From positions 8,917 to 72,916 of the IMG/VR virus record IMGVR_UViG_3300033067_000181: a stretch of 64,000 nucleotides of DNA; one strand, 5' to 3'. Below the pieces are notes generated by a model. That model was not told where the DNA came from. It was given only the letters and a program-made list of their open reading frames with translations, and made no database searches. This document shows, piece after piece, positions 2,115 to 63,723 of the stretch (position 1 is its first letter; every line of letters begins with the position of its first letter). The position numbers were made by a program, and so were the translations under genes. The stretch is from a virus (taxonomy: Duplodnaviria; Caudoviricetes).

Positions 2115-2128
2115 AGGTAAATAACTGT

Positions 2129-2371
2129 ATGTATGTAATGGAAATTTTTGATGGCAACAATGACTTACCGGGTCATCGCTCTGAAAAGGACGATAACTCC
2201 GTAGTTAAACTTGGCGACATGCGTAAGACTAAGCTAACTCTAGCTCACATCAACAAGTTACGCATGGCAAATGACATTCGAAAATTTGAACATGAAGACA
2301 AACTCAAGAAGGTATCTAAGCAGTACAAGGCTGCTCCAGAAGGCGGCGGCATGGGCGCTCCTGGTATCTAA
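2129..2371 (+). CDS. Small hypothetical head-module protein
   Basis: 80-aa ORF between portal and core gene, preceded by TAAATA at 2118-2123. Confidence 0.7.
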   Translation: MYVMEIFDGNNDLPGHRSEKDDNSVVKLGDMRKTKLTLAHINKLRMANDIRKFEHEDKLKKVSKQYKAAPEGGGMGAPGI

Positions 2372-2467
2372 TTCTTAAAATCCTTCAAAAAACACCGATA
2401 TTAAGTAGAAATCTGCGTAGATTAGTAAATAATTTACAAGCCATATTATTGAAAGGACATTTTTAAT

Positions 2468-3532
2468 ATGAACAAATACGAACAGTTGATTGAACACATT
2501 ATCAACGAAAACGAACAAGCAGCTCGTGAGCTTTTTCACTCTATTGTAGTTGAAAAGTCTCGTGAGATTTATGAAAGCCTGATGGACGAAGATCAAGTTG
2601 ACGAAAACATTGATCAGTACGACCAACAAGGCGACCTAGCACAAGACGTAGCTAGCGACGAAACCCACGGTTTAGGTGAAGACGACCTAGAAGGTGGCGA
2701 TATTGAATTAGACGGCGGCGACGAGTTTGGTGGCGACGATCTAGGTGGTGACGACATGGGCGGTATGGACGACATGGGCGGTGATGACTTAGGTGGCGAC
2801 ATTGGCGGCGGCGATGCTGAAGGTGAATTCCAAAACATCCGTGATGCAATCGACAGCTTAGAAGCTGAGTTTGCTAAACTAACTGGCGGCGAAGGTGACA
2901 ACCAAAGCGGTACAGGTTCTGCAGAATTTGGTGGCGACGAAGACGGTCAAAGCGGTACTGGCTCTGATGAGTTCGGTGGTGCAGACGGTGCTGAAGACGA
3001 AGCCGGCGCAGAAGACGAAATGTTTGCCGAAGGTGAAAATCCATTTGCTAAGAAAGGTTCTGGCGCAAGCGGATCTGGTAAGAGCGGAAGCGGCAAGTCT
3101 GGTTCTGGCAAAAGCGGTTCTGGTAAGATGACTGAAGCAGAAATGATGCGTGAATACGTTGAAAAAGTTGCTGCTCCAGCTAACACAGAAGGTACAGCAG
3201 TTGGTACAGGCAACAAGACTCCTAAAGTTTCTGTTAACACAAAGAACCCACTAGCAGGTAAGAACGACATGGGCGGTTCTGCAAAGAACATCGCTAATGG
3301 CAAGTCTGACGCAGGTGATGTTGATGGTAACAGCACAAAAGCTAAAGCAGGTGGTTTTGTTAAACCAGCACAAGAAATTGATGTTGCAAAGCGTAACGTA
3401 AACAAAGTTGGCGGCAACAAAGGCGCTCAAGACTTCTATAACACTAAAGCTAAAGGTAAAGACGCTGAAGGTAGCACTACCGACGGTAACTTGAGTGTTA
3501 ACAAGAAGAGCCTTGAAGGCGGCCGTAAGTAA
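2468..3532 (+). CDS. Acidic, low-complexity prohead core protein (gp67/68-like position)
   Basis: Asp/Gly/Glu-rich N-half, Lys/Gly/Ser-rich C-half; synteny between portal and protease; AAGGA SD. Confidence 0.65.
   Translation: MNKYEQLIEHIINENEQAARELFHSIVVEKSREIYESLMDEDQVDENIDQYDQQGDLAQDVASDETHGLGEDDLEGGDIELDGGDEFGGDDLGGDDMGGMDDMGGDDLGGDIGGGDAEGEFQNIRDAIDSLEAEFAKLTGGEGDNQSGTGSAEFGGDEDGQSGTGSDEFGGADGAEDEAGAEDEMFAEGENPFAKKGSGASGSGKSGSGKSGSGKSGSGKMTEAEMMREYVEKVAAPANTEGTAVGTGNKTPKVSVNTKNPLAGKNDMGGSAKNIANGKSDAGDVDGNSTKAKAGGFVKPAQEIDVAKRNVNKVGGNKGAQDFYNTKAKGKDAEGSTTDGNLSVNKKSLEGGRK
3068..3127 (+). repeat. Tandem SGSGK peptide repeats in core protein
   Basis: Translation GSGKSGSGKSGSGKSGSGK, with synonymous divergence at DNA level. 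Confidence 0.85.
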
Positions 3533-3545
3533 TTAGGACAATAAT

Positions 3546-4172
3546 ATGGCTTTGTACCTAAGAGAAAACCTTACATTCGATCGTGCCAACATTATCGTTG
3601 AGTCCGAAGGTGATGGTAAGAATCTCAAAATGAAAGGGATATTCATCCAGGGAGGCGTGAAGAACGCTAACCAACGTGTATATCCAGTTCATGAAATTGA
3701 AAAGGCCGTATCCACCATTAACGAACAGATTAGTGGTGGATACAGTGTCTTGGGCGAAGTCGACCATCCTGATGATTTAAAGATTAATTTAGATCGTGTC
3801 TCCCACATGATTGAAAAAATGTGGATGGACGGTCCTTGCGGATACGGTACTCTAAAAATCCTACCAACACCAATGGGTGAACTTGTTAAGTCAATGTTAA
3901 CTAGTGGTGTTAAGTTGGGTGTTAGCAGCCGTGGATCCGGTAACGTTAATGAAAGTAGCGGTCACGTAAGTGATTTTGAAATCATTACAGTAGACATTGT
4001 GGCACAACCCTCTGCTCCTAATGCTTATCCTAAAGCAATTTATGAAAGCCTTATGAATATGAAGGGCGGTTCGCAAATATTTGAGATGGCTCGTGATGCC
4101 TCTCAAGATCAAAAAGTACAAAAGTACATGAAAGAAGCAATTACCCGCTTCATCAAAGACCTTAAAGTATAA
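3546..4172 (+). CDS. gp21: Prohead maturation protease (T4 gp21-like)
   Basis: GIFIQGGVKNANQRVYP, LGEVDHP and GVSSRGSG motifs of the gp21 family. Confidence 0.92.
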   Translation: MALYLRENLTFDRANIIVESEGDGKNLKMKGIFIQGGVKNANQRVYPVHEIEKAVSTINEQISGGYSVLGEVDHPDDLKINLDRVSHMIEKMWMDGPCGYGTLKILPTPMGELVKSMLTSGVKLGVSSRGSGNVNESSGHVSDFEIITVDIVAQPSAPNAYPKAIYESLMNMKGGSQIFEMARDASQDQKVQKYMKEAITRFIKDLKV

Positions 4173-6565: not shown

Positions 6566-6593
6566 AAAAAGCCCCTTAATTTGGGGCTTTTTT
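6566..6593 (+). terminator. Rho-independent terminator after major capsid gene
   Basis: aaaaagcccc-ttaattt-ggggcttttt-t. Confidence 0.85.
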
Positions 6594-6624
6594 GTTGGCG
6601 TAAGTTTTTGCTATTAAATACAAA

Positions 6625-7506
6625 ATGAAATCAATATTCCGTTACTCACCAAAAGACATATATCTTATCTTGTATGCTTTCTTTTTGTTCTGCGTTCCTT
6701 ACACACTAGCAGTATGGACTCCGTCATTTGCGTGGATACTTGTTATAAGTTTTTTCCAGGTCTGGTTTATTGTTAATTGTCAAAACAGTTCTTTGCATCA
6801 TCATACACACTGGACAACATTTAAAAGTTCTACACTAAACAGAATCTACGAATTGTTTTTAAGTGCAGTTACTGGCATTCCGCAGAATGCATGGAAAAAT
6901 ACGCACATGCTGCACCACAGGCATGTAAACGATAAACCTAATCATACAGGTGCTACACAAGATCCAGTTAGTGTTTATCGCGGAAGACGCGATGGTGAGC
7001 TAGTAAACTTTTGGGTTTACTGTTATAGGATGACAGTATTTTTCCAAATTAAAAACTTCTTTATTGCATCGCCAAGAAGAATACAAATTGATGAGTTCAA
7101 TAAAAGATACAACAGAGAGCTATGGGCATTTAGGCTTTACATATTGTCAGTGATTGCAATTAATCCATTGTTTGGATTGTGGACAGCTCTAGTATATGCT
7201 TTGGCCTTTTTTGTAAACAATGCTAACAGCTACGGCGAGCATTGGGGTGCGTTAAATAGACGTGGTGATACAACACAAGATAGTATCGGCATCTACAGTA
7301 AGTGGTACAATATTTTTGGTTTTAATGCAGGGCTGCATCAAGAACATCACCACAAGCCGGGTGTACACTGGACTAAGTTACCTGAAGTCACTCCTTTACT
7401 AAACCCCGATAGAGTTATTGTTAAGCACGGCGTTCATATCACAAACAATCCTTTTTGGAGTCACTTTGTTGCACTTATTAAAGGTGAAAAGGTATATCCT
7501 AAATAA
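6625..7506 (+). CDS. Membrane-bound fatty-acid desaturase family protein
   Basis: Three His boxes (HHHTH, HMLHHRH, HQEHHH) separated by hydrophobic segments. Confidence 0.85.
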   Translation: MKSIFRYSPKDIYLILYAFFLFCVPYTLAVWTPSFAWILVISFFQVWFIVNCQNSSLHHHTHWTTFKSSTLNRIYELFLSAVTGIPQNAWKNTHMLHHRHVNDKPNHTGATQDPVSVYRGRRDGELVNFWVYCYRMTVFFQIKNFFIASPRRIQIDEFNKRYNRELWAFRLYILSVIAINPLFGLWTALVYALAFFVNNANSYGEHWGALNRRGDTTQDSIGIYSKWYNIFGFNAGLHQEHHHKPGVHWTKLPEVTPLLNPDRVIVKHGVHITNNPFWSHFVALIKGEKVYPK

Positions 7507-7589
7507 ATATATTGTTCACTCTTAACTGAGAGTTTATGCAGTTACCCAACTGCGTAGGCCTAGAACGCCAAACATTAAGGAGAAACAAC

Positions 7590-8304: not shown

Positions 8305-8355
8305 GGACGTTGCAGTTTTACATCTAAGATAAATATCTAATAACGGAATTTATAA

Positions 8356-8973
8356 ATGTCATTAAATACACGGTTTAACGGAACTTGGAACATTATTGGT
8401 CACGAGACCACAAGTAATGTGCAAGTGGCCGCACACTCATTTATTGTTACAGGTAATTTGAAAGTACTTGGTACAGTGTCGAACATTTCATCGACTAATA
8501 CTCAAATCACCGATAACATTGTAACCTTGAATCAAGGAGAAACAGGTTTCGGGGTTACTCCAGTGTATTCCGGACTTGAAGTTGACCGTGGTCAGCTTGC
8601 TAAAACAGCATTACGATGGAACGAATCGTTGACTCGTTGGGAATTAACATCTGACGGTTCGGTATACATGCCAATTGTTACTGGTGTAAAAGGTATCGAG
8701 GGTGTATTCCAAGATCCTGCTCCGCAGTTAGGTGGTAACCTAGACGTATTAGCTAGAACTATTTTTAGTTCAAATACTCAGGTTGTTAAATTTGACACTA
8801 ACCTTGCAGTTAAAAACACAACAGTTGCTCCAAGTACGTTAAGTGGGTACAACACTGTTTATTCACAAACCCCCAATGGTGGCGGCAGCGGCTTATTTGT
8901 TACAAACACAACCAAACAACAACAAGAACTAATCACAAAGAGTAAAGCAGTATTTTACTCATTGATGATGTAA
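8356..8973 (+). CDS. Virion structural protein (fibre-associated)
   Basis: Shares DNIVTLN..E...G..VDRG-type fibre motifs and DPAPQLGGNLD; late box at 8330-8335. Confidence 0.65.
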   Translation: MSLNTRFNGTWNIIGHETTSNVQVAAHSFIVTGNLKVLGTVSNISSTNTQITDNIVTLNQGETGFGVTPVYSGLEVDRGQLAKTALRWNESLTRWELTSDGSVYMPIVTGVKGIEGVFQDPAPQLGGNLDVLARTIFSSNTQVVKFDTNLAVKNTTVAPSTLSGYNTVYSQTPNGGGSGLFVTNTTKQQQELITKSKAVFYSLMM

Positions 8974-9722: not shown

Positions 9723-9753
9723 AAAGCTGCTAAATATAGAAACGGAGAGTTAA

Positions 9754-11982
9754 ATGGCTATTGGTAGAATTTCGGGCTCAATGCTTGTGTCCAACTTGGA
9801 CAGACAAGGTACTGATCTTCAGTTTACGACCAGCGGCCAGCCTTTGTATTACATGAACTTTAGTCAGTTCCATGTAGGCATTAACACAAACGTAACACCA
9901 CAGACTTTAACTATTGCTGGTAATTTAAGTACCAGCAACATTGTTATTGACGGTAACAGCATTTCGACTAAGAACGGTGAAGCTATTAGTATCGCCGGCA
10001 ATGTCAATTACGACATTGGCAATCTAAATATCGGTGGCGGTTCGGATGGATATGTAATTAGCACAAACGGAGCAGGTGCATTATCTTGGCAGAACTTTGC
10101 TACCTTAAGCAACTCACAAGGATTCTATGGTAATGCATTTGTTATGGGCACTGCGGCAGCAGGGTCGACTAGCAATGCATTAACTTTCTCTGAGACCACA
10201 TCGGTAACAGATGGTATTGCCAGTCTAAACAGATTGTTAGGTAATATCACCGATGTAGATGGCACACTAATACATGTTGCTGGCAACATAACAGCGGGCA
10301 ATGTAAATAGTCGCTTCTACGGTGACATTAATGGCAACATTATAGGCACTACAGGCACCTTTACTAGTGTTAGCGGCACCTTAACTACCGCTGCACAGCC
10401 GAACGTTACTAGTGTAGGCACATTAACAAGTTTAGCAGTTACAGGTAACGTAACAGCCGGAAACGTAATTAGTACATTCTACGGTGACCAATTTGGTAAC
10501 AGTACCGGCACTAGCGGATCATTTACAAACGTAACTGGCACCTTACAAACAGCAGCACAACCAAACGTAACCAGCTTAGGAACACTAACTGGGTTAGTGG
10601 TAACTGGTAACGTAACAGCAGGTAACGTAGCAGGTACTCAATTCAATGGCAACATTGTTGGTACAACTGGACTTTTCTCGGGCAACGTTAATACAGACAA
10701 CGTCATTGGTACCATTGGCGATTTTACTTCTGTTAACGGTACATTACAAACTGCTGCTCAACCGAATATCACAAGTGTTGGAACACTAACTGGATTGGTT
10801 GTTAACGGAAACGTTTCGGCAACACACTTAAATGGACTGTTCCACGGCAATATCATTGGTGGTACAGGCCTATTCTCGTCAAACATAACTACATCCAGCT
10901 ACGTTGCATTTGGTCCAAATGCAGACTTATTGCAAGCAGGTGTAGCAGCGTTTGTTAATGACAGTTTCGGATTTACTACTCAATACAATTCTGGTGTAGT
11001 GTTTACTAACCAGCAAGGTGCAACTACACAGGCTTTGTTCCTTGGTGATACATCGTATGGTAACAACAGCTCGTTGTTGGGCGTATCAATTAACAACACT
11101 CCGGTACTAAACTTAACTGGTACAGGTAACTTAGCAGTCACAGGTAATGTGTATGCTGACAACTTTATTGGTACACAATTTAACGGTAACGTAGTTGGTA
11201 CACTCATTGGTAACATTAGTGGAACTACTGCAACGTTTACTACCATTGATGGAACATTAACAACAGCAGCTCAACCAAATATCACAAGTGTCGGAACACT
11301 AACAAGCCTTGCAGTTACAGGTAATGTGACTGCTGGTAATGTAAACAGTACGTTCTACGGTGATGTTCACACCAACAACATCACAGGCATTAACGGCAAC
11401 TTAACTATTACTGTTCCGAGTAACAGTGTTGCAGTGTTCTCGTCTGACCAAGCAGTTAAACTACCAATTGGTGACAGCTATAACAGACCAGTTGGTGTAG
11501 CAGGTTACATTCGTTACAACACAGATACACTATCTGTTGAATACTTTGACGGCACAAGCTGGGTTCCAGTAACAAACAAAGTTACAAGTCAGTCATTTAG
11601 CGGCGACGGGGTAAACGATACATACGTGCTAACACACGATGCAAGTATTGAATCCTTGCTAGTAACCATTAACGGTACGGTGCAGCAAAGCGGAGCCTAC
11701 ACAGTCTCTGCAGGGTACATTACTTTTGCTGAAATTCCACTAGTAACTGATGCAATCAACATTCGTTACTTAGGCGGCGTAACATCGTTCAGTGGTGTTG
11801 TATCAAATGACTTAACAATACAAGGCAACTTAACGTTAAGTGGTATCTTACAAGCACCACAAACAACCAAAGCATCTAACGCTGTTGGTACTCCGGGCCA
11901 AATTTGTTGGGACGCAAACTATCTATATGTTTGCACTGCACCAAATACTTGGAAACGCAGTCCTCTAACAGGCGGCTATTAA
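9754..11982 (+). CDS. Tail fibre-like protein with repeated AAQPNITSVGTL motifs
   Basis: Four copies of TAAQPN(V/I)TS(V/L)GTLT; Gly/Thr/Asn-rich. Confidence 0.75.
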   Translation: MAIGRISGSMLVSNLDRQGTDLQFTTSGQPLYYMNFSQFHVGINTNVTPQTLTIAGNLSTSNIVIDGNSISTKNGEAISIAGNVNYDIGNLNIGGGSDGYVISTNGAGALSWQNFATLSNSQGFYGNAFVMGTAAAGSTSNALTFSETTSVTDGIASLNRLLGNITDVDGTLIHVAGNITAGNVNSRFYGDINGNIIGTTGTFTSVSGTLTTAAQPNVTSVGTLTSLAVTGNVTAGNVISTFYGDQFGNSTGTSGSFTNVTGTLQTAAQPNVTSLGTLTGLVVTGNVTAGNVAGTQFNGNIVGTTGLFSGNVNTDNVIGTIGDFTSVNGTLQTAAQPNITSVGTLTGLVVNGNVSATHLNGLFHGNIIGGTGLFSSNITTSSYVAFGPNADLLQAGVAAFVNDSFGFTTQYNSGVVFTNQQGATTQALFLGDTSYGNNSSLLGVSINNTPVLNLTGTGNLAVTGNVYADNFIGTQFNGNVVGTLIGNISGTTATFTTIDGTLTTAAQPNITSVGTLTSLAVTGNVTAGNVNSTFYGDVHTNNITGINGNLTITVPSNSVAVFSSDQAVKLPIGDSYNRPVGVAGYIRYNTDTLSVEYFDGTSWVPVTNKVTSQSFSGDGVNDTYVLTHDASIESLLVTINGTVQQSGAYTVSAGYITFAEIPLVTDAINIRYLGGVTSFSGVVSNDLTIQGNLTLSGILQAPQTTKASNAVGTPGQICWDANYLYVCTAPNTWKRSPLTGGY

Positions 11983-12060
11983 TCCCACTATTACTGAACC
12001 TTTGCCCATTTAGGCAAGGGTATCATTTTGGCTAAATATGTTAGTATTGGAGCTTTGGCG

Positions 12061-15000
12061 ATGGCCGTAACCAGAATTAAGAATAATCAGATCACAGATT
12101 CAACAATCACATACACAAAGATTGCACCTGGAACGCTGGTCGGAAGTAACTTTAACGAGAATTTAACATTAAATTCTAACTTAAGTATCGTTGGTAACTT
12201 AACAATTACAGGGGTGTCAACAACTGTAAGTTCTACTAACACATACGTTAATGATCCGTTGATTGTGTATAACAACGGATACGCAGGCAACTTGTCAAAC
12301 TATGACATTGGTATGCTAGTGAACCGCAATCTGTCGGCATTAACTGGATATGGTAACGTAAACACTGCGTGGGTATGGAGTGAAGCGGAATCGGCATTTA
12401 TTGCCATTACAACCACAGACACTGGTGCAGGCATTACCAACCTAAATAACAGTGGCTTTGCAAACGTTAAGTTAGGTAATTTAACTGCGGTAGCGGCAAC
12501 GCTCTCTGGAAAAATTACAGCAGCAGAGTTAGCTGGTTTCCATACAGGTACTGCTGATTTAAGCACAGCAGTAGTAACAAATTTTTCTTCTGGTAATGCA
12601 CAAATTACCGGGGGCAACGTACAAGGTATTCAATACCTACAAACAACAAACTTTAGTACAGCCAACGCAAGAATTAATGGCGGCGCAATTAATGCAACTC
12701 CGATTGGATCTGATACTCCGTCGGTTGGTATCTTTACTTCGGTAACAGCAAACGAGTCTGACACAATCGGTAATGCTAGTATTGGCGGCAACCTAAGTAT
12801 CAATGGTAACTTGTTTGTGGTTACTGGTAATATCACAACTGCTAATGCTGCATTTATGGTTGGTAATACCATTACCGGCTTTGGTGCAATGTATGCAGGT
12901 ATTCCGGTAGGGTATAGCATTTTGCCTCAAGTTGTTGGTCAGTTCTCTGAGAACTACAACGGCTATGCTCAGATTAATACACAGAACATTAACGCAGGCG
13001 GTGATGCAACCACTGACTATGTAGCAACAGCCGACAACGGTACTGACTCGACGTTCTATGTTAACTTGGGTATTAACAGTTCTAATTATGATCCACTAAG
13101 TCCAAACAACAGTCTAGGTACAGCAACTGGTCCAAACGATGCATACCTATACACTCAAGCAAATACATCTGCGTCAAACGGTGGTAACTTAGTTGTTGGT
13201 ACAACAACTGACCAACGCTTTATTAGATTTGTAAGTGGTGGCGGAAACATTGAGCATGTGGTAGCCACATTAGCCCAACCTGGTGTAACATCTACCTCAA
13301 CCGCATCTGGTGCCTTAGTAGTAGCAGGTGGCGTCGGTGTTGCTGGTAATGTATCGGCAACTGATTTCTACGGTAACTTGGTTGCCCCGTATGCATTAGT
13401 TACTAACTTAGCAAGTGGTAATGCTCAAATCACTGGCGGTAGCATTACTGGTATTACACTTGCTGCCACAACTTTAGTGGCAACAAACTTCAGTACAGCT
13501 AACGCTCAGATAAGTGGCGGCAATGTGCAAGACATTGGTTATTTGCAAGCCACAAACTTTAGCACAGGAAACGCAGTTATTACTGGTGGCAGTGTAACGG
13601 GCATTACTGGGCAAGCAAGCACATTCACAGCAACTAATTTCTCAACTGGTAATGCACAGATTACTGGCGGTAGTATTACTGGTATCACTGGTGCAGCATC
13701 GTACTTCACAGCAACTAATTTCTCAACTGGTAATGCACAGATTACTGGCGGTAGTATTACTGGTATCACTGGTGCAGCAACAACATTTGAAGTTGATAAC
13801 TTCAGTACAGGTAACGCACAAGTAACTGGCGGTAGTATTACTGGTATCACTGGTGCAGCAACAACATTTGAAGTTGATAACTTTAGCTCTGCCAATGCAC
13901 AAATTACCGGCGGCAATGTTCAGGGCATTAGTTACCTACAAACAACAAACTTCTCAACTGGTAATGCACAAATTACTGGTGGTAGCATCACAGGTATTAC
14001 TGGACAGGCAAGCACATTTACTGCAACCAATTTTAGTTCAGGCAACATTGTTGGTATCTTAACTGGTACTGCGTCAACTGGTAACGTTGCTTTATATGAG
14101 AACTATACTTCAACATCTACTAACGCAACTTTCTATCCAAGTTTCACAGACAACGGAACAAGTAGCAACAGTGCAGCGTATACAAACACTTCGTTAACCT
14201 TTAACCCATCGACTGGTACACTATCAACTACTTTAGTTCGTGTAACTGGTAGTGACGATTCTACTAGTTCAGCATCCGGTGCTTTAGTAGTAACAGGTGG
14301 CGCAGGCGTAGGTGGCAACTTATATGTTGGACAAAACGTTGTTGTCACTGGTAACTTAACAGTACAAGGCACAACAACTGCAATTAATTCTGCAACACTT
14401 GATGTTACTGATTTAAACATCACAGTAGCTAAAGGAGCAGTAAACAGTTCAGCCGCTAACGGCGCAGGACTAACAGTCGATGGCGCTAATGCAACCTTGT
14501 TGTATGCTGACGCCACTGATAGTTGGAATTTTAACAAACAAGTTATTGGTCAATTTACAACCAGTAACTTACAAGCAACTGGCGGAAGCATCACTAACTT
14601 TACAGGTGCAGCAAGTACACTGGTTGCTACGAACTTTAGCACAGGAAACGCACAGATCACAGGCGGTAGCATCACTAACTTTACTGGTGATGCAACCTAT
14701 CTAACTGCAACTAATTTCTCAACTGGTAATGCACAAATTACTGGCGGTAGTGTTACTGGCATTACCGGTTCTGCTAGCACCTTCACTGCAACCAACTTTA
14801 GCTCTGGTAATATTGTTGGTGTGCTGTCTGGTACTGCATCTACTGGTAACGTTGCATTGTATGAAAACTACACTGCAACCACAACCAACGGTATCTACTA
14901 TCCAAGTTTCACTGATCGTTCTACATCAGGTAATAGTGCAGCATATATCACTCCTGGTATCAACTTTAACCCAAGTACAAATACCATTAACGCTACAACG

Positions 15001-23632: not shown

Positions 23633-23634
23633 CC

Positions 23635-36613: not shown

Positions 36614-36650
36614 GTCCTGACAGTAATAAATACTGTAACAGGACTTTTCT

Positions 36651-39675: not shown

Positions 39676-39782
39676 ATTAATCTCCTTTTGGTGCTAAGGT
39701 ATTTATTAAGGGCAGCATAACAGCCCGTTTTATCCAAAACCTGGTAAATATTGATATCGTGTAACATAAAGGAAAAAAGATT

Positions 39783-43046: not shown

Positions 43047-43122
43047 AGTAGGTATATAACGGGGCTGTAATGGTCCCGTTAACTTACCCAAAATTAGGTA
43101 AATACCTTAACAGGAGAATAAG

Positions 43123-43787: not shown

Positions 43788-43815
43788 GTGGCTAAATAGT
43801 TTATAAGAGGATACT

Positions 43816-48658: not shown

Positions 48659-48680
48659 AAAAGGACCTTCGGGTCCTTTT
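48659..48680 (+). terminator. Rho-independent terminator
   Basis: aaaaggacc-ttcg-ggtcctttt. Confidence 0.85.
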
Positions 48681-48694
48681 CTTTTAAATACACT

Positions 48695-49387: not shown

Positions 49388-49394
49388 ATACATT

Positions 49395-49889: not shown

Positions 49890-49911
49890 ATATACAATAG
49901 AGGAATTCGCG

Positions 49912-52151: not shown

Positions 52152-52188
52152 AATCTTTTGGGACGGGAGTTAATGCTTAAATATTTCT

Positions 52189-53001
52189 ATGGATAAAACA
52201 GACTTTTCGTCAGTCGATCACATTGAATATTATTTAGGCAAAGAAACACTCCCGAACTTGCATTGGAAGACTGAGATTCCAGCACAGTGGAATATTCCTG
52301 CTAGAACAGACACTGGAATATTCCACACTGATAAGGTTAAAAATGCAACCATTTCTACACCATTCAATGAAGTCGCGTACACTTTTAATAACTTAGGTTA
52401 CAGAAGCAACTTCGATTTTACAGACGATCTTAAAAACCAAAATGTTATCTTGTTACTTGGATGTAGCGATGCTTTTGGTTTTTTGCTTGAGTATCAATAT
52501 ACTTACGCCAACATCTTAGAAAAAACACTAGGTAAAAATTTTACTATAGTAAACCTATCAGTTGCTGGTGCAAGTCCTGATATGGCTGTTAGGATTGGTA
52601 CGCAAGCAATTCAGCATCTAGGATCTGCGGTAAAGCATGTTTGCATGTTATGGCCGATGTTTTCACTGCGTGAATTTGTAAGTAAAACATTTTCGTCGGG
52701 TGTACATGTATTAGGCGAAGCATCATTGCCGTACAAAGATTGGTGGGATCATGTCGATTGGGTAAGTAACAATTACAATTTCCAAAAGAATCGAGCGTTA
52801 ATTACGTCAGTTACAGCAGCAAACAGCGCCCAGTATCATGAGCTAATTTTAAATCGCAAAGACGGAAAAATTCCATTTGATGTTATAAACAATCCGCCAT
52901 ATACTGCCCTTGGAAAAAATTCCCACACAGCGATAGCTAGATTTTTTATTAAAAAAATAAAACAGGCCCCGAGTTTCTTTGAAACATGTACGCAATCGTA
53001 G
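52189..53001 (+). CDS. Hypothetical protein, SGNH-hydrolase-like
   Basis: NNLGYRS, LLGCSDAFG and VNLSVAGAS resemble SGNH blocks I-II. Confidence 0.45.
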   Translation: MDKTDFSSVDHIEYYLGKETLPNLHWKTEIPAQWNIPARTDTGIFHTDKVKNATISTPFNEVAYTFNNLGYRSNFDFTDDLKNQNVILLLGCSDAFGFLLEYQYTYANILEKTLGKNFTIVNLSVAGASPDMAVRIGTQAIQHLGSAVKHVCMLWPMFSLREFVSKTFSSGVHVLGEASLPYKDWWDHVDWVSNNYNFQKNRALITSVTAANSAQYHELILNRKDGKIPFDVINNPPYTALGKNSHTAIARFFIKKIKQAPSFFETCTQS

Positions 53002-53067
53002 TTTAAATTGGTAAAACACTAATATGCCCTATTAGTACGAAGGTTCGACTCCTGCCCGATTGCTCCA
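52992..53067 (+). tRNA. Degenerate tRNA-Gly(GCC)-like element
   Basis: GCAATCG/CGATTGC acceptor + T + CCA; GTTT/AAAC D-stem; CTAAT/ATTAG stem with ATGCCCT loop; GGTTCGACTCC T-loop; flawed T-stem. Confidence 0.65.
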
Positions 53068-53073: not shown

Positions 53074-53081
53074 TATAAATA
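53074..53081 (+). promoter_or_regulatory. Perfect T4 late promoter TATAAATA
   Basis: Exact consensus, 6 nt before ATG 53088. Confidence 0.75.
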
Positions 53082-53087
53082 TTAAGT

Positions 53088-53468
53088 ATGAAAATAAACG
53101 AAGTTATTGTAGAAACTAGAGCTGGTAAAGTACCCAATGGGTATAAAGAGGCCAGTACCGGTATCCAAACATTTAGCGATAAAGAAGGATCCAATACGGA
53201 TTACACTCACTATCGCTTAGGATTGGCTCTTGCTAGCTGCGATGGCAAGACTCCATTAGTAGACATGGATCCAAAATCGTTTTATGGTAAAAAGCACACT
53301 GCTCATCCTTACACCCAAGAAGAAGCAGCGATGCTAAAGCAAGCATACAAAATAGCCGGCGCAGACTCTAGTGATTTAAACAACGGCAATTTGAATAGTA
53401 TGGAGCTTTCGGACACAAACAAGTCCAGCACTACTGCTAAACCAAAGAAAAACCGTTACGGAGTATAA
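53088..53468 (+). CDS. Hypothetical protein with capsid-targeting-like N-terminus (MKINEVIVE)
   Basis: Late box directly upstream. Confidence 0.65.
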   Translation: MKINEVIVETRAGKVPNGYKEASTGIQTFSDKEGSNTDYTHYRLGLALASCDGKTPLVDMDPKSFYGKKHTAHPYTQEEAAMLKQAYKIAGADSSDLNNGNLNSMELSDTNKSSTTAKPKKNRYGV

Positions 53469-53848
53469 TGAAGCAGTATCGAATTACTTCGTCGGACTAT
53501 GTGCAACCTGCAGAAACTGCACTAATCCCTGATGCTGTACTACATGATCCAGCAGCACTTGAGCTGCATGACTTAGCACGTATACAAGAATTGGCAGGCA
53601 TTGTTGAAGGCCGTGACAAAGCGGCTACAGCAACGTTTAATAACCCCAGCGGCTTACGCAGTCCTGTAGCGGTTGCCAATGAAAAGAAGCAAATAGAAAA
53701 AGAACAAAACATTAAGCCCGGAAGCCCAGAGTGGTTCCGTTTGTGGTTTGCTAAACCAGAGCTCACAGGCGAAAAGCCGGTCGGTGATGAAACCGCCGGC
53801 TATACTAACAGCTTAATGTCAGTTAATGTTCCGAATCCTAACCGTTAA
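53468..53848 (+). CDS. Hypothetical protein (ELAGI motif; IKPGSPEWFRLWF)
   Basis: TAATG coupling. Confidence 0.65.
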   Translation: MKQYRITSSDYVQPAETALIPDAVLHDPAALELHDLARIQELAGIVEGRDKAATATFNNPSGLRSPVAVANEKKQIEKEQNIKPGSPEWFRLWFAKPELTGEKPVGDETAGYTNSLMSVNVPNPNR

Positions 53849-54371
53849 CTACTTTACGGTCAACACCCAAATAACGCAACCAGCTTTCGTGGCCTACGTG
53901 GAAAGGGCGATCCTTCCAAGTTTTAATTAGGCTGTGGTAGGTTGGGATAAAAGGCATACGCAGAGGTTTCTGCAACTTGTGGCCTTTTTTGCTGTTACAT
54001 GCCTTGCAGCTTGTTACACAGTTTTCCCAGCTTGTTCCGCCGCCCATTGCACGTGGAATTACGTGGTCAATAGTTAGTTCGCTAGTGTGAAAAGTGTCGC
54101 TACAGTATTGGCACTGATATAGGTCACGCAAATACAAGTTATGGCGACTGAACTTTACACCCTTCTTAAAATTGTAGTATTCCTTTGTAACCGCAACCGC
54201 TGGAACATTGATACTCATATGTTCGCTGCGAATAACGCGATCTTCGTAGGATTCCAAAACCGTAATACGATCCAAGAAGTACAATTTTAAAGCATGCTGC
54301 CAGCCGATAACACTTAGCGGTAGGATGCTAATTGGTTGGTGGTCTGCATTTAGTAGTAATGTATCTGCCAT
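53838..54371 (-). CDS. HNH endonuclease (start reassigned to MADTLLLNAD)
   Basis: RDLYQCQYC, TIDHVIPRAMGG..SWENCVTSCKACNSKKG. Confidence 0.9.
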   Translation of the reverse strand: MADTLLLNADHQPISILPLSVIGWQHALKLYFLDRITVLESYEDRVIRSEHMSINVPAVAVTKEYYNFKKGVKFSRHNLYLRDLYQCQYCSDTFHTSELTIDHVIPRAMGGGTSWENCVTSCKACNSKKGHKLQKPLRMPFIPTYHSLIKTWKDRPFHVGHESWLRYLGVDRKVVNG

Positions 54372-54420
54372 TTTGTTCTCATTTCGAAAAGTTAAAGACC
54401 CACATGTATTTAACCCGCTC

Positions 54421-54449
54421 AGTTTAGCAGAAATGCCCTTTTTTGTCAA
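54421..54449 (-). promoter_or_regulatory. Sigma70-like promoter for the HNH gene
   Basis: Minus strand TTGACA-N17-TAAACT with TGn extension. Confidence 0.8.
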
Positions 54450-54488
54450 TCAAATTAACATAAACGGCACATATTATGTAAATACAGT

Positions 54489-56060
54489 ATGAGCAAACCA
54501 CTTGAAACGACGATCGTAAAGACGCCGCATTTAAAAGCCAACTACACAGAAAAGCAAATCGTTGAATTTGCTAAATGTGCGGACCCAGTTACTGGTCCTG
54601 AATATTTTATGAGTAACTACTTCTTTATTCAGCACCCTACAAAGGGTAAGCTGTTGTACCATCCATTTGAGTACCAAAAGAAGTTAATTGAAAACTATCA
54701 CAGTTTCCGATTTTCTATCTCGTTAATGCCACGTCAAACCGGTAAGTCAACATCAGCAGCAGGATACCTACTTTGGTATGCTATGTTTGTACCGGACAGC
54801 ACTATTCTTATTGCTGCTCACAAGTACACAGGTGCCCAGGAAATTATGCAGCGTATCCGTTACGCTTACGAACTATGCCCTGATCACATTAGAGCAGGAT
54901 GTACTAGCTACAACAAGGGCTCCTTAGAATTTGAAAACGGATCACGTATTGTTTCACAGACAACTACTGAAACAACTGGTCGTGGTATGTCTATTTCGCT
55001 ACTATACTGTGACGAATTTGCATTCGTTCGACCTACTATTGCTACAGAGTTCTGGACTTCTATTTCGCCTACACTATCCACTGGTGGTAAAGCGATTATT
55101 ACAAGCACTCCTAACTCAGACGAAGACCAATTTGCGTTGATCTGGAAAGGTAGCCAAAAGCGTATTGATGAGTTTGGTAACGAAACAGAACTTGGACAAA
55201 ACGGTTTCCGTGGATATCAAGCTAACTGGTGGGAACACCCAGATCGCGACGAACAATGGAAAGCAGAAGAAATTGGACGTATTGGCGAAGAACGTTTCCG
55301 TCGTGAACACGGTTGCGAGTTCTTGATCTACGATGAAACCCTAATTAACGCTACTACTCTAATTGAGTTAGCAGGCATTGATCCAATTGAGCGACAAGGA
55401 CAAGTACGCTGGTACAAACGTCCATCCAAAGGTAACACTTATGTAGTTGCCCTAGACCCTAGTTTAGGTACAGGCGGAGACCCTGCTGCTATCCAAATTA
55501 TTGAAGTTCCTAGCTTAATGCAAGTCGGCGAATGGCAGCATAACAAAACACCTGTGCAACGGCAGATTGTTATTCTCAAAGAAATTACACAGCATATCTA
55601 CGACCAAATTGGAACCGAAACGGATATCTACTACAGCGTAGAAAACAATACGTTAGGTGAAGCTGCTTTAATTAGTATTAGCGAAATGGGCGAAGAAAAC
55701 ATCAGGGGCGTGTTTATTAGCGAACCCAAAACGATGGGCAAAGGTCGTTCATACCGTAAAGGGTTCACAACAACCAATAAAACTAAGCTATCGGTATGTG
55801 CAAAGGTTAAAGCTCTAATTGAACAGAAGAAGCTGACTATCGCAAGTAAGAACTTGATATCTGAGCTTAAGACGTTTGTTGCAATGGGCAGCAGCTTTGA
55901 GGCCAAAATGGGCGAAACAGACGATTTGGTTATGAGCTTGATGCTAGCTGTGCGAGTTATTCAAGCACTACAGAGCTATGATAGCAATTTGGACGAAACC
56001 ATGAAGGACAAAGCAGAGGACTATGTACAACCTATGCCGTTCCTGGCTAGCTTCGGCTAA
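54489..56060 (+). CDS. gp17: Terminase large subunit (T4 gp17-like)
   Basis: PRQTGKST Walker A, LLYCDEFAF Walker B, ITSTPN, ALDPS.G and DDLVMS. Confidence 0.96.
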   Translation: MSKPLETTIVKTPHLKANYTEKQIVEFAKCADPVTGPEYFMSNYFFIQHPTKGKLLYHPFEYQKKLIENYHSFRFSISLMPRQTGKSTSAAGYLLWYAMFVPDSTILIAAHKYTGAQEIMQRIRYAYELCPDHIRAGCTSYNKGSLEFENGSRIVSQTTTETTGRGMSISLLYCDEFAFVRPTIATEFWTSISPTLSTGGKAIITSTPNSDEDQFALIWKGSQKRIDEFGNETELGQNGFRGYQANWWEHPDRDEQWKAEEIGRIGEERFRREHGCEFLIYDETLINATTLIELAGIDPIERQGQVRWYKRPSKGNTYVVALDPSLGTGGDPAAIQIIEVPSLMQVGEWQHNKTPVQRQIVILKEITQHIYDQIGTETDIYYSVENNTLGEAALISISEMGEENIRGVFISEPKTMGKGRSYRKGFTTTNKTKLSVCAKVKALIEQKKLTIASKNLISELKTFVAMGSSFEAKMGETDDLVMSLMLAVRVIQALQSYDSNLDETMKDKAEDYVQPMPFLASFG

Positions 56061-56084
56061 ATATACAAATAGACAGGTTAACCC

Positions 56085-57551
56085 ATGCGTGAATTAGACA
56101 AAATTGCAGAGAACTTATTTGACAAGATCCGTACTCGCTTTGAGAACGTGAACTTAGGCGACGAAAACGCCAAGCGTACAAACGATCCATCAAAGGCTCG
56201 TTTTTTCAACTTTGATTACATTGACTCAGACGGCAAGAACTACGGCAACGTTACTATGAGTATTGTTGACGACGACGGTCTTAAGGTGTACTTTAGTAAG
56301 AACATCACTGACCAACTAGATGACGGTCAGCAAGAACAATGGTTTGAGTTCCTAAAGAACATTCGTAAGTTTGCCCGTGGCAACCTAATGAAGTTTGATG
56401 TACGTGACATTAACAAAAGCAATTTGGACATTCGCGACATCAAGCAACAAAGTAAAGCAGACGGTACATTTGTTGATACAGACGTAACAGCAGCAGTTAC
56501 CGAAAGCCGTATGTGGGGCACAAGCCGCAGCAGCTACCAAGATATGGGTCCTGCTAAGATTATTGTACGTCACAGTGATAACGTTAGTGACGAGAAGCGT
56601 GGCGACCGTAGCCGTAAAATTGATTCGGTATTTGTGGAAAACCATTTGGGAGAGCGCCGCTTACTTAACACCAAAAACCTACACGTTGCCCGTGCAATGG
56701 CACGCCACGTTAGCGAAGGTGGCAATGTTGATGATGAATTGGGTTGCGGCATTATGGAAATGGGCAAAGAAATGGGAGCCATGGCTCACTTTGTTCGTGA
56801 AGCAAAACGCCGTCAATTTGAAGATGCTGAAACAGATGAAATGGCCAAGAGTGCCGTGGAACGTTACGGCGAACTAAAGAATAAACTAAAGCATTTAGGT
56901 GGACGTAGAGGCTATAGCAGCTACAAACAAGACTACGTACCTGCACATGATGTTGAAGAAGAAGTAGACGTAGATGCATTGCGTGAACGCTTTGTTAAGA
57001 AGATTTACGACGATCGTTTTACTGATGCGTTACCATACGTGTACAAAGCATACAAGAACAGACAAGAACGTATCCATACTCCAATGGGCGAAGACTTTGA
57101 AAACTGGGCAAACGAAATCTCTGAAGATGCGTTTGAAACACAAGATCAAGAGTACGCAGAATTGGAAAAGATTATGGGTACTGCATTACGTGTAGGCCAA
57201 GACGGTGTAGATGCAAGACACGCTCTAATCCGTTTGTTTAACGACGACGGTCTAGACCAAGAGTTAACTAAGTTTTCGCAAGAGCAAGGACCGGATGCAG
57301 ATGCTCGTCAACTAGTTTTGAGCTGGATGAAACAAAATGGTATGAAGATTGTTGCTAGCCGCATTGAAGCAAAATTGGCTCAGTCACAAGCTCCTGCCCA
57401 ACCCACACCAGCAACACAAAGCCCGGTTCCACAACAGCAACCACAGCAACAAGTGGCAGCACCAGGGACAGATCAACAAGTACAGGCACCTGTAGCTGAG
57501 TCTCAGGATCCGTTAGACTTTATGAAACGATTGGCTGGGTTGGTTCGATGA
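56085..57551 (+). CDS. Hypothetical late protein ending in KRLAGL motif
   Basis: Late box at 56058-56063; Gln/Pro-rich linker before the C-terminal motif. Confidence 0.65.
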   Translation: MRELDKIAENLFDKIRTRFENVNLGDENAKRTNDPSKARFFNFDYIDSDGKNYGNVTMSIVDDDGLKVYFSKNITDQLDDGQQEQWFEFLKNIRKFARGNLMKFDVRDINKSNLDIRDIKQQSKADGTFVDTDVTAAVTESRMWGTSRSSYQDMGPAKIIVRHSDNVSDEKRGDRSRKIDSVFVENHLGERRLLNTKNLHVARAMARHVSEGGNVDDELGCGIMEMGKEMGAMAHFVREAKRRQFEDAETDEMAKSAVERYGELKNKLKHLGGRRGYSSYKQDYVPAHDVEEEVDVDALRERFVKKIYDDRFTDALPYVYKAYKNRQERIHTPMGEDFENWANEISEDAFETQDQEYAELEKIMGTALRVGQDGVDARHALIRLFNDDGLDQELTKFSQEQGPDADARQLVLSWMKQNGMKIVASRIEAKLAQSQAPAQPTPATQSPVPQQQPQQQVAAPGTDQQVQAPVAESQDPLDFMKRLAGLVR

Positions 57552-57973: not shown

Positions 57974-57997
57974 ATTTTGGCAAAACTAGTTCTACCG

Positions 57998-58024
57998 AAG
58001 GCACAAATTTTGTGCCTTTTCTTT
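57998..58024 (+). terminator. Terminator-like hairpin
   Basis: aaggcaca-aattt-tgtgcctt followed by T-rich run. Confidence 0.75.
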
Positions 58025-58053
58025 TGACTTGGCTAAATACTTTATCATATACT
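58024..58053 (+). promoter_or_regulatory. Composite promoter for gp32: TTGACT-N18-TATACT with embedded TAAATA (58034-58039)
   Basis: Sequence elements visible directly. Confidence 0.6.
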
Positions 58054-58123
58054 AGCGACTGTGCTGTTATATGATTAGGCACATTTAAAGACCATCTTAA
58101 ATTATTAATAAAGGAAATACATC

Positions 58124-59128
58124 ATGGCAATGACACTAGCAGAAATTCGTGCAAAACTACAAGCTCAAGAGAACCGCGGTGGCGGTCAACGACAACAAGG
58201 CGATAGCGCCGTTTACGCTCACTGGAACATTCCAGAAAACACTACAGCTCGCGTAAGATTCCTTCCTGATGCAAACACAAAAAATGACTTCTTCTGGGTT
58301 GAAAGACTCATGATCAAGTTGCCTTTTGCTGGCATCAAGGGTCAAAGCGATAGCAAACCTGTTGTGGTACAAGTACCATGCGTTGAAATGTATGGCGATG
58401 CTTGCCCTATCCTTGCAGAAGTTCGTACCTGGTTTAAGGACCCTAACTTGGAAGAAATGGGTCGCAAGTACTGGAAAAAGAAAAGCTACTTGTTCCAAGG
58501 TTTTGTTCGCGACAATCCTTTGAGCGATGACAAGAATCCGGAGAACCCAATCCGTCGTTTCATCATCAGCCCACAGATTTTCAACTTGGTACGCAATGCC
58601 TTGTTGGATCCTGAAATGGATAGTATGCCAACTGACTACCAAGCTGGTCTTGACTTCTCTGTTAAGAAAACTAGCAAAGGTGGTTATGCTGACTACAGCA
58701 CATCTAGCTGGAGCCGCAAAGAATCTGCACTTACAGCAGACGAAGCGGAAGCAATCGAGAAGCATGGTTTGTACAACCTAAGCGACTTCTTGCCTAAGAA
58801 GCCTGATGACACTGCACTGAAAGTTATCAAAGAGATGTTCGAAGCATCTGTTGATGGCCAACCTTACGATCCAGATCGTTGGGCCAACTACTTCAAGCCA
58901 GCTGGCTTGCAAGTTGGTTCTGGTAGCACTGGCGACGAAGCAGCAGCTAAACCTGTTGCACAGGCCCGCCCAGCAGTACCAGCTACTCCTGCCCCGGCAG
59001 CAGCAGAAACTCAACCATGGGAAGAAGATGCTCCAGCAGCAGACGAACCTGTTGCAGCACCAGCAGCTAAACCAAGCAGCCAACGTGCGGAAGACATCCT
59101 AGCGATGATTCGCAACCGTAAGCAGTAA
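58124..59128 (+). CDS. gp32: Single-stranded DNA-binding protein (gp32-like)
   Basis: VRFLPD, CPI...WFK...KYWKK and YADYSTSSW; acidic/Pro-Ala C-tail. Confidence 0.88.
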   Translation: MAMTLAEIRAKLQAQENRGGGQRQQGDSAVYAHWNIPENTTARVRFLPDANTKNDFFWVERLMIKLPFAGIKGQSDSKPVVVQVPCVEMYGDACPILAEVRTWFKDPNLEEMGRKYWKKKSYLFQGFVRDNPLSDDKNPENPIRRFIISPQIFNLVRNALLDPEMDSMPTDYQAGLDFSVKKTSKGGYADYSTSSWSRKESALTADEAEAIEKHGLYNLSDFLPKKPDDTALKVIKEMFEASVDGQPYDPDRWANYFKPAGLQVGSGSTGDEAAAKPVAQARPAVPATPAPAAAETQPWEEDAPAADEPVAAPAAKPSSQRAEDILAMIRNRKQ

Positions 59129-61924: not shown

Positions 61925-61926
61925 TA

Positions 61927-62175
61927 ATGGACATTAGAGCACACGCAATAGAGTTACTAAACGAATTTTATTTGTGTATGCGGGCCCGCCCAAAACACAA
62001 TGCAGTAGACTTTAGGCTGGAAAAAGACCAGTGTGAAAAGATAGCAGGCGAACTAAACAATCTAATAGCATGGGGCACAGACGACGAGATTGCAGAATCT
62101 TGCAAGGTGCTTGAGCCCAAACTTATTAGACTAAAAGAAAAACTCACATTTGAATTACTAAAATATGGCGTTTAA
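61927..62175 (+). CDS. Hypothetical protein
   Basis: 82-aa ORF in operon. Confidence 0.55.
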   Translation: MDIRAHAIELLNEFYLCMRARPKHNAVDFRLEKDQCEKIAGELNNLIAWGTDDEIAESCKVLEPKLIRLKEKLTFELLKYGV

Positions 62176-62914
62176 GAATCCTTCTGACAGTCATGCACAT
62201 AGTCAGAATGTTTTAAAACTTCTATATGAGTACGATAGTTTCCTTGACAGTATACGTGTGGTAGCAGACTTTGGGTGTGGCACAGGTCTAGATGCAAAAT
62301 GGTGGGCAACATTAACCACTCGAGAAGAACAGCCTGAACCCCGCAATTATCTAGTTTACGGAGTTGATCATAACATAGGACAAGTTGAGCCCGATGTTGC
62401 TGCACTTCCTAACGTGCATCTGTTTCAAAAAGATTTTGAAGATGACAATGTAATTCCACGTAAATGTGACTTACTATGGAGTCACGATAGTTTTCAATAT
62501 GCTGTGAATCCGATGCAAACGCTCAAGTACTGGAACCAGCAAATGAACGTTAACGGCATGCTGGTATTAAGCATTCCAGTAACCACATTTTACCAGTACA
62601 ACAAGATACAAGTTAACAGTTACAACGGTGGGTATCACAATTACGACATTGTGAATCTTATGTATATGCTTGGAGCAAATGGCTTTGATTGCAGAGATGC
62701 GTACTTCTACAAACCGCAACATGAGTCGTGGATTTATGCAGCAGTTTACAAAGCAAGCGAGCCCTTAGACCCAAAAACAACCAGTTGGCATACACTAGCC
62801 GAGATGAATGTTATTAGTGATCGTGCCAAAGAAAGCCTTAATGTACATAACTATGTAAGGCAAACAGATTTAGTTACATTGTGGCTAGATAAAGATTTTC
62901 ATAGAGTGTTGTAA
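62165..62914 (+). CDS. Class I SAM-dependent methyltransferase
   Basis: VADFGCGTGLD motif I; DLLWSHDSFQY. Confidence 0.8.
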   Translation: MAFKNPSDSHAHSQNVLKLLYEYDSFLDSIRVVADFGCGTGLDAKWWATLTTREEQPEPRNYLVYGVDHNIGQVEPDVAALPNVHLFQKDFEDDNVIPRKCDLLWSHDSFQYAVNPMQTLKYWNQQMNVNGMLVLSIPVTTFYQYNKIQVNSYNGGYHNYDIVNLMYMLGANGFDCRDAYFYKPQHESWIYAAVYKASEPLDPKTTSWHTLAEMNVISDRAKESLNVHNYVRQTDLVTLWLDKDFHRVL

Positions 62915-62955
62915 TTACGCCACAGTAAGAATTTATTCTTGTGTTATAGTAACGC

Positions 62956-63723
62956 ATGACAAAAATTCTGCTTTGGTTATCTATTTTGGTTATACCGGTT
63001 CTGCAAGGCTGCTCGGCAATAGCAGTGAAGTCAGAGGATTCGGGACATACTGCACATCTTAATCTAATGGTTAAAGAGCAGCAAAAATCTGGGACTGTGC
63101 TAGTATTAAACGGCTGCGATGGTCCCACTAAGCCGCACTATTACCATTGGGCCAAACAAATTTCGGACTTTGGGTATAACGTGATCATTGTTGATTCCTT
63201 TAGTTCACGTGGGTACACTAGTTTATGTGGCAAAACGCTAACTGGTGAATACGCATCATCTGCTGCTAAGGATGTAATTGCAGTAGGCAAGTGGGTTAAG
63301 CTACAACCATGGAGTAATGGTAAAGTTGCTATTGTTGGATTTTCCATAGGTGGCATTGAATCATTGCTGGCAGTAACATCAACTGCTCCGGATGCTACAC
63401 AAGTATTCTCAGGTGCTGTTGCATATTACCCTAACTGCAAGTTTGTTAAGCAAACAGCTAAAGTGCTGTCTCCTTTGCAAGTGCATATAGGTTTGTCAGA
63501 CGAGTGGGTCCCAGTTGATAAGTGCCAGGAATTGTCTACAGCAAAAAATTTCAATGCTGCTGAGTTTTATTTCTACAAAGATGCACACCATATGTTTGAT
63601 GGATACAGTAGCGGCACCGCACGTTGTTTCTACGGACCAAGCTGTAGATACGAACGAAATGATCAAGCTGCAACAGCAGCAAAGCAGCGAATGCAAAAAT
63701 TTCTTAAGGATCACTTGACCTAA
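62956..63723 (+). CDS. Dienelactone-hydrolase-family esterase with lipoprotein-type signal peptide
   Basis: GFSIGG, HIGLSDEW and AHHMFD; N-terminus MTKILLWLSILVIPVLQG|C. Confidence 0.75.
   Translation: MTKILLWLSILVIPVLQGCSAIAVKSEDSGHTAHLNLMVKEQQKSGTVLVLNGCDGPTKPHYYHWAKQISDFGYNVIIVDSFSSRGYTSLCGKTLTGEYASSAAKDVIAVGKWVKLQPWSNGKVAIVGFSIGGIESLLAVTSTAPDATQVFSGAVAYYPNCKFVKQTAKVLSPLQVHIGLSDEWVPVDKCQELSTAKNFNAAEFYFYKDAHHMFDGYSSGTARCFYGPSCRYERNDQAATAAKQRMQKFLKDHLT

Follow-up and report, generated by a model that had tools for sequence, protein, structure and literature searches.

We describe here the placement of a hexameric box, TAAATA, relative to start codons in a 64-kb stretch of DNA from a virus of the Caudoviricetes (IMG/VR record IMGVR_UViG_3300033067_000181, positions 8,917 to 72,916), referred to below as the window. 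The box is found upstream of genes in two layouts defined by d, the number of nucleotides (nt) between it and the ATG: a short layout (d = 4–8) that leaves no room for a Shine-Dalgarno (SD) motif, and a long layout (d = 17–36) that typically includes one. The layout of a gene is inherited, conserved, and gene-specific across a clade of related phages, and the best explanation, which we consider probable from the sequences at hand, is that genes with the short layout are expressed from leaderless late (and in some cases early) mRNAs.

The window makes up 64 kb of a 72.9-kb viral contig with a CheckV completeness of 21%. Encoded on it is a T4-like virion and packaging module with genes for the portal, prohead protease, major capsid protein, adaptor, sheath, tube, and fiber-like proteins and for the large terminase, SSB, and UvsX, together with auxiliary enzymes, namely a fatty-acid desaturase, an alpha/beta hydrolase, and a dienelactone-hydrolase-like protein. 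A nucleotide search against cultured phages gave no near relative and kinship is seen at the protein level only, with the large terminase 54% identical to that of the Pseudomonas jumbo phage PA5oct and 43% identical to those of Rak2-like phages such as 121Q. Relatives in IMG/VR number in the hundreds, and 240 loci taken around the terminase, the portal, and gene 28030 (45–96% protein identity) together with the window's own contig form the clade set of 3.2 Mb used below. Genes are named by the position of their start in the window.

Two distances between box and start codon

The original prediction had expected TAAATA-to-ATG distances to be bimodal across related genomes, and they are sharply so. 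The histogram is annotation-free and includes only unique contexts in which the ATG is the first start of an open reading frame (ORF) of at least 60 codons. It has modes at 5 nt and at 18–21 nt, separated by a trough at 9–15 nt: there are 42, 147, 28, 38, and 19 unique contexts at d = 4, 5, 6, 7, and 8, from one to eight at each distance between 9 and 15, and 43, 47, 41, and 66 at d = 18, 19, 20, and 21, and because the loci are related these raw counts are not independent events, a kinship partly addressed by family-level clustering and by the variability of the spacers. Control AT-rich hexamers have a flat distance profile with no peak (ATAAAT was disregarded as a control since it overlaps the real motif), the variant TAAGTA peaks likewise at d = 5, and a near-complete 354-kb relative, G001, has the same shape when taken alone, with 36 ORF starts at d = 4–8. 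Start codons at d = 5 are ATG in 147 instances, and neither GTG nor TTG is found there.

Within the window the box is not over-represented as such (50 occurrences compared with 57.8 in shuffled sequences), and the bare pattern TAAATA-N(4–6)-ATG is in modest excess, with nine occurrences compared with 3.26 ± 1.85 after shuffling and one of 100 shuffles reaching nine. Placement is another matter, with 22 of the 39 plus-strand boxes situated 3–45 nt before one of the 58 gene starts on that strand, a zone that covers 3.9% of positions (binomial p = 2.6e-21). Eight boxes have d = 4–6, fourteen have d = 17–36, and none falls at d = 7–16. All eight genes originally proposed to begin 4–6 nt after the box are indeed so arranged, and are listed here with a ninth instance at the end of the window:

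2118–2131, plus strand: TAAATA-N5-ATG of the 80-residue gene 2129–2371, directly after the portal gene (phrog_13986, function unknown)
6567–6627, plus strand: terminator (6567–6594) after the major capsid gene, followed by TAAATA (6615)-N4-ATG of the fatty-acid desaturase gene 6625–7506 (PF00487, 84.5 bits)
29655–29669, plus strand: TAAATA-N6-ATG of gene 29667–30398, with the box overlapping the TAG stop of the upstream gene
48659–48697, plus strand: terminator hairpin (48659–48680), followed by TAAATA (48685)-N4-ATG of the alpha/beta-hydrolase gene 48695–49387
49385–49397, plus strand: TAAATA-N4-ATG of gene 49395–49889, with the TAA of the box serving as the stop of the upstream gene
52178–52191, plus strand: TAAATA-N5-ATG of gene 52189–53001, function unknown
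53076–53090, plus strand: TAAATA-N6-ATG of gene 53088–53468, with the box 9 nt after tRNA-Gly(GCC) (52992–53067)
54479–54491, plus strand: TAAATA-N4-ATG of the large terminase gene 54489–56060, divergent from a minus-strand gene
63969–63981, plus strand: the ninth TAAATA-N4-ATG, whose ORF runs beyond the window end

The ninth site is preceded by genes for tRNA-Met and tRNA-Arg(TCT) (63761–63837 and 63846–63920) and by a strong TTGACA-17-TACAAT site at 63931–63959.

The claim that these starts have no room for an SD is borne out, in that seven of the eight have no SD-like motif, and that of the eighth, 2129, is located ahead of the box and not after it. Each short-class ATG is also the earliest possible start of its ORF, with the single exception of 49395, for which an in-frame ATG is present at 49257 inside the upstream gene. 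We considered and rejected the idea that the TAA of the box is merely the stop codon of the preceding gene; this holds for some sites only, and a stop-to-start distance of 8 nt bears no relation to the reading frame.

The long-class sites are as follows:

377–410, plus strand: TAAATA-N25-ATG with GGA, portal gene (408)
2426–2470, plus strand: TAAATA-N36-ATG with AAGGA, gene 2468, first of the protease / 4187 / major capsid operon
7500–7538, plus strand: two overlapping TAAATA (N30 and N26) before gene 7536, without an SD-like motif
8330–8358, plus strand: TAAATA-N20-ATG with GGA, gene 8356
9731–9756, plus strand: TAAATA-N17-ATG with GGAG, fiber-like gene (9754)
12033–12063, plus strand: TAAATA-N22-ATG with GGAG, gene for a 1741-residue protein (12061)
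23604–23637, plus strand: TAAATA-N25-ATG, gene 23635
33786–33812, minus strand: TAAATA (33812–33807)-N18-ATG (33788) with GGA
36627–36653, plus strand: TAAATA-N18-ATG with AGGA, head-tail adaptor gene (36651)
39673–39705, minus strand: TAAATA-N24-ATG (39675)
39745–39785, plus strand: TAAATA-N32-ATG with AAGGA, tail sheath gene (39783)
43099–43125, plus strand: TAAATA-N18-ATG with AGGAG, tail tube gene (43123)
43793–43818, plus strand: TAAATA-N17-ATG with GAGG, tube-like gene for a 549-residue protein (43816)
49887–49914, plus strand: TAAATA-N19-ATG with GAGGA, gene 49912
56058–56087, plus strand: TAAATA-N21-ATG with no clear SD, gene 56085

The seven genes for which longer leaders, mostly with GGA(G), had been proposed (408, 8356, 9754, 12061, 36651, 39783, and 43123) all have GGA or GGAG 6–11 nt before the ATG, and nearly all long-class starts in the window have GGA, GGAG, or AGGA at 5–11 nt.

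Layout is conserved gene by gene

The strongest conservation of the short layout is in the 80-residue post-portal family (2129), where it is present in 50 of 52 unique ortholog contexts, 41 of them with d = 5, and in the 49395 family (30 of 34). The large terminase gene has the short layout, with TAAATA or TAAGTA, in 43 of 72 ortholog contexts, the long layout in 17, and no box in 12. Both desaturase orthologs (2/2) and all three members of the 52189 family are short, and an ortholog of 48695 (in locus L043) retains the complete terminator-TAAATA-N4-ATG arrangement. The 29667 family is mixed, with six short members and nine long ones with an SD, and at 53088 the box is absent from most orthologs, with only one of 28 being short. 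SD-like motifs are scarce in short-class ortholog contexts (7/50, 0/30, 2/43, and 2/62), and in the short families the length of the spacer is kept while its sequence drifts.

The long layout is at least as stable. It is present in 55 of 58 portal orthologs, in all orthologs of 2468 (43/43, with SD), 8356 (10/10), and tube (20/20, with SD), in 35 of 35 orthologs of 49912 (34 with SD), and with SD in 14 of 15 orthologs of the minus-strand gene 33788; an SD is almost always present in long-layout orthologs. The 56085 family, annotated as a 'virion structural protein', is short in 62 of 73 members (TAAATA-N4–7-ATG) and long in 11, including the window copy with d = 21, and the 43816 tube-like family has mixed layouts among relatives. 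Clustering of all promoter-proximal ORFs gives 182 families, and the short layout occurs at least once in 64 of them; it predominates in 14 families, the long layout does so in 29, and another 14 contain a mixture. Overall, about 40% of promoter-proximal late genes in the clade carry the short layout. The families that switch layout (56085, large terminase, 29667, and 43816) constitute natural paired constructs for the function of the layout.

These distributions bear on the proposal that leaderless messages serve the terminase and accessory genes and SD-led messages the abundant structural genes. It holds to the extent that the portal, the 2468 operon, the major capsid protein, the tube, and the sheath are never or almost never short and that the large terminase and several enzymes are short, but it does not hold for the 56085 family, which is mostly short, for the mixed 43816 family, or for the 14 families that switch.

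Two circumstances in which the short class would be illusory had been raised, and neither was found. Ortholog alignments reach residue 1, so the starts have not been mis-called with true starts lying further downstream, and the alignment of PA5oct gp283 to the product of gene 49395 begins at Met1 (39% identity). Transcription solely by read-through with usable SD sites is excluded as no SD is present, and two of the genes are directly behind intrinsic terminators. No SD-bearing transcript can be drawn for 6625 and 48695 because they form terminator-box-N4-ATG units, nor for the large terminase gene because it faces a divergent neighbor.

The box resembles a T4-type late promoter

Late promoters of T4 consist of the 8-bp sequence TATAAATA at -13 to -6, followed by an A/T-rich stretch and lacking a -35 element (PMC2988020), and a late motif ATAAATA has been predicted in the Rak2-like phages CBB and GAP32 (PMC5259590). 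The box was defined here as TAA(A/G)TA and is invariant because sites were selected on it. In both layouts there is an A at -1 in 50–63% of sites and a G at -2 in 42–45%, with nothing conserved further upstream, and the sharing of these two bases argues that the two layouts contain a single element. The clade boxes do not conserve the initial T of the T4 8-mer. Boxes precede virion and packaging genes, including the portal, the protease/capsid operon, adaptor, sheath, tube, fiber, and large terminase. Three larger relatives (G001, G002, and G004) encode a late sigma factor of the gp55 family; the G001 ORF matches phrog_12791 with E = 1.9e-81, and a match to phrog_234 with E = 9e-25 was also obtained among the relatives.

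A model for late expression

We propose that (A)TAAATA forms the core of a late promoter of T4 type, which would be read by the host RNA polymerase together with the phage gp55-like sigma factor, with RNA starting about 5–6 nt after the box if the geometry is borrowed from T4. Since the T4 box occupies -13 to -6, d = 5 would place the A of the ATG at +1, and 5 nt is exactly the mode in the clade. Distances of 4 and 6–8 would place that A at -1 or at +2 to +4, and could be accommodated either by a purine-preferred start on the A or by a leader of 1–3 nt. Messages from the short layout, having no SD, would be translated as leaderless mRNAs, with the ribosome recognizing the 5'-terminal AUG, as is classically associated with 70S ribosomes and IF2.

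The long layout (mode 18–21) would give a leader of approximately 12–16 nt, the minimum for an SD and its spacer, and ordinary 30S/SD initiation. The leaders of this class would be minimal, with the SD beginning 2–4 nt from the predicted 5' end. The phage thereby appears to use two minimal designs, either no leader at all or the shortest leader able to bear an SD. The SD layout is kept by the virion genes of highest abundance, those of the portal, the major capsid operon, the sheath, and the tube, and the leaderless layout would serve the large terminase, the small protein encoded after the portal, the family of 49395, a number of enzymes, and various proteins of unknown function. An AUG without an SD may be translatable only if the RNA starts there, which would tie its translation to that one promoter and silence read-through transcripts.

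A more ambitious version holds that in this clade of jumbo phages late expression of the T4 type has been reorganized so that promoters gate translation, with about 40% of promoter-proximal genes, including that of the large terminase, leaderless and with phage-encoded bS21 and IF1 retuning host ribosomes late in infection; this we regard as quite unlikely. G001 encodes both bS21 (PF01165, 52.9 bits; G001:C1:232992–233144, minus strand) and IF1 (PF01176, 78.3 bits; G001:C1:176286–176474, minus strand), at loci L268/L269. The bS21 gene has TAAATA-N7-ATG and no SD, and the IF1 gene has TAAGTA followed by GAGGAG and a TTG start. A search for IF3 was empty.

Sigma70-type promoters adjoining start codons

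The same fusion is found at a few sigma70-type, presumably early, promoters, in which the -10 hexamer lies 6 nt before the ATG. The -10 boxes described 5–6 nt before the ATGs of three genes are present as sequence:

33817–33854, plus strand: TTGACG-17-TACAAT-N6-ATG, gene 33852–34118
34129–34146, plus strand: extended -10 TGcTACAAT-N6-ATG, gene 34144–34596
62942–62958, plus strand: TGtTATAGT-N5-ATG, dienelactone-hydrolase-like gene 62956–63723, the weakest case

Six orthologs of 33852 (40–83% identity) keep TTGACn-N17-TA(T/C)AAT-N6–8-ATG, and two orthologs of 34144 keep TGcTATAAT-N6-ATG, one of them with TTGACC at -35; 62956 has no orthologs among the fetched loci. In the pooled set and in G001 alike, sites with the full sigma70 consensus peak slightly at d = 6, and in the window the overall number of sigma70-like sites does not exceed that expected by chance.

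Alternative explanations

Several observations weigh against leaderless late expression or blur its geometry. The position of the start site is borrowed from T4, and the clade sigma factor, at about 290 residues compared with 185 in T4, could have a geometry that differs by a base or two. Half of the short cases in the window have d = 4, for which strict T4 geometry puts the start on the U of AUG, and the long-class profile has a broad A/T-rich zone 5–7 nt after the box and no sharp start signal. The window's own contig, at 21% completeness, yielded no gp55, and searches of the relatives for the other T4 late factors, the sliding-clamp activator gp45 (PF02916) and the co-activator gp33 (Syn9 query), were empty, although the controls were equally empty. 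The exclusive use of ATG at d = 5 is a weak discriminator, as ATG dominates every class and GTG and TTG are rare throughout. Finally, the host was not placed by our searches; the TRAP-binding protein gene has a best match of only 50%, to a metagenome-assembled genome of the Bacteriovoracaceae, and a protein atlas search returned viral clusters.

There are three other ways to account for the short class. In one, the short-class genes are translated from longer read-through RNAs, by SD-independent initiation or by termination-reinitiation, with TAAATA serving genes further downstream or acting as an A/U-rich translational enhancer. Neighboring genes are packed very tightly, in many cases the box touches or overlaps the preceding stop codon (49385, 29655, and 2118), and other window genes with neither SD nor box are evidently coupled through TAATG or ATGA overlaps (28030, 53468, and 60308); furthermore, in the PA5oct ortholog of 49395 the box is only 2 nt from the ATG, which is ill-suited to a leaderless start. 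However, a sharp mode at exactly 5 nt with a variable spacer is not expected of either coupling or a loose enhancer, other AT-rich hexamers have no such peak, and the same box with the same flanks is found 18–21 nt upstream of SD-led genes, where it cannot be an SD substitute. Taken with the terminators ahead of 6625 and 48695 and the divergent gene facing the terminase gene, this makes the read-through explanation unlikely. A further proposal, that TAAATA is an RNA-processing site cut by an endoribonuclease, with 5' ends that could still be leaderless or carry a short leader, is highly improbable. Nuclease-generated leaderless mRNAs do occur in Escherichia coli (MazF), and nothing specific was found in favor of such processing here; the motif is identical to the T4 late-promoter core, a sigma factor of gp55 type is encoded in the clade, and where the box directly follows a terminator there is little RNA to process.

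The third alternative is of a different nature, as it bears on the significance of the pattern rather than its mechanism, and is compatible with leaderless late mRNAs as the best explanation. The arrangement may be ordinary for a host in which leaderless mRNAs are common (e.g. Actinobacteria or Deinococcus-Thermus) and reflect no special phage strategy, and we view this as possible, if on balance unlikely. That start codons are fused to promoters of two kinds, sigma70-type and late, points to leaderless messages being tolerated in general, the cultured relatives without enrichment of the short layout infect Proteobacteria or cyanobacteria, and Thermus phages mirror their host in the same way; against this, the searches did not place the host.

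Neighboring features

The SSB gene (58124–59128, gp32-like) has upstream of its SD a AAAGACCATCTTAA-like motif within 58079–58123 that is conserved in approximately 66 relatives, often with repeated GGCACA(T), and could be either a middle-promoter element or an autoregulatory operator. A terminator (57997–58019) and a sigma70-like site (58024–58053) lie just upstream of this motif. The start called for UvsX (59193, TTG) is most likely wrong; like its orthologs, the gene would begin at an ATG that lies some 27 nt further downstream and is preceded by an AAGGA SD. Similarly, the minus-strand gene 53838–54449 (called from a TTG) probably starts at the ATG at 54371, with a minus-strand TAAATA (54412–54407) 35 nt upstream.

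Significance and comparison with known systems

In most Gram-negative bacteria, leaderless mRNAs are considered uncommon and poorly translated. If the model is correct, then a widespread clade of uncultured phages would express essential genes such as the large terminase through box-N5-ATG, a rule that can be read from sequence, and that would improve the annotation of start codons and promoters in metagenomic jumbo phages. It would also provide a natural setting in which to ask what purpose leaderless initiation serves, be it yield, timing, or insulation from read-through, and a concrete reason to study phage-encoded bS21 and IF1. A host widely tolerant of leaderless mRNAs would make the finding less surprising.

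The short layout is not enriched in six cultured phages. Counts of box-N(3–8)-ATG compared with a reversed-pattern control are 5 and 8 in T4, 14 and 17 in PA5oct, 10 and 39 in 121Q, 6 and 5 in Phosso, 9 and 10 in Vibrio phage 2.275.O, and 7 and 10 in Syn9, whereas they are 41 and 15 in G001 of the present clade. Shared with T4 are the same core TAAATA usually preceded by A, no -35 element, a position before late virion genes, and a sigma factor of the gp55 family. The differences are that T4 has no excess of the short layout, which in the clade accounts for some 40% of promoter-proximal late genes, and that the clade lacks the conserved first T. The phages CBB, GAP32, and PA5oct belong to the same supergroup and have the same late motif before structural genes, but only the long layout has been described there. 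The PA5oct paper reports sigma70-like promoters only, with no late motif and no single-base start sites. In our own counts PA5oct has a single clear short case, gp262 (d = 5), a virion protein known from mass spectrometry. For the large terminase of PA5oct (NC_071039), the annotated start is inside a terminator-like hairpin, aaaagggtgttATGcaccctttt, with a T-run (L245:19965–20001); it is probably annotated too far upstream, as similarity to the window protein begins about 36 nt downstream.

Promoter elements that abut an initiator codon, with RNA starting at or next to the AUG, are also seen in lambda cI transcribed from PRM, which is leaderless and the lone such gene in lambda, and in the TAAATG initiators of poxvirus late genes, a eukaryotic-type system with a different polymerase and added poly(A) heads; the resemblance in both is one of analogy only. 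Among other phages, phiKZ has no leaderless transcripts and AR9 has long leaders. Parallels are found in the Thermus phages: most middle and late transcripts of phiYS40 are leaderless, with host IF2 reportedly up and IF3 down (review PMC3594737), and most transcripts of Lalka27a are leaderless (bioRxiv 10.64898/2026.04.20.719267), in a host phylum where ORFs commonly have a -10 box beside them and leaderless mRNAs are the norm (PMC12340547). Shared with these phages are a temporal class of mRNAs, a 5' end that coincides with the initiator codon, and a -10-like element directly upstream; they differ in promoter type (TAGGGT in Lalka27a) and lineage, and leaderless status was measured there, whereas here it is inferred, and for a gene-specific subset only. 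In the literature searched we came across no description of leaderless messages from late promoters of the T4 (gp55) type, and the feature is a clade-specific variant of two known things, the T4-type late promoter and the leaderless phage mRNA.

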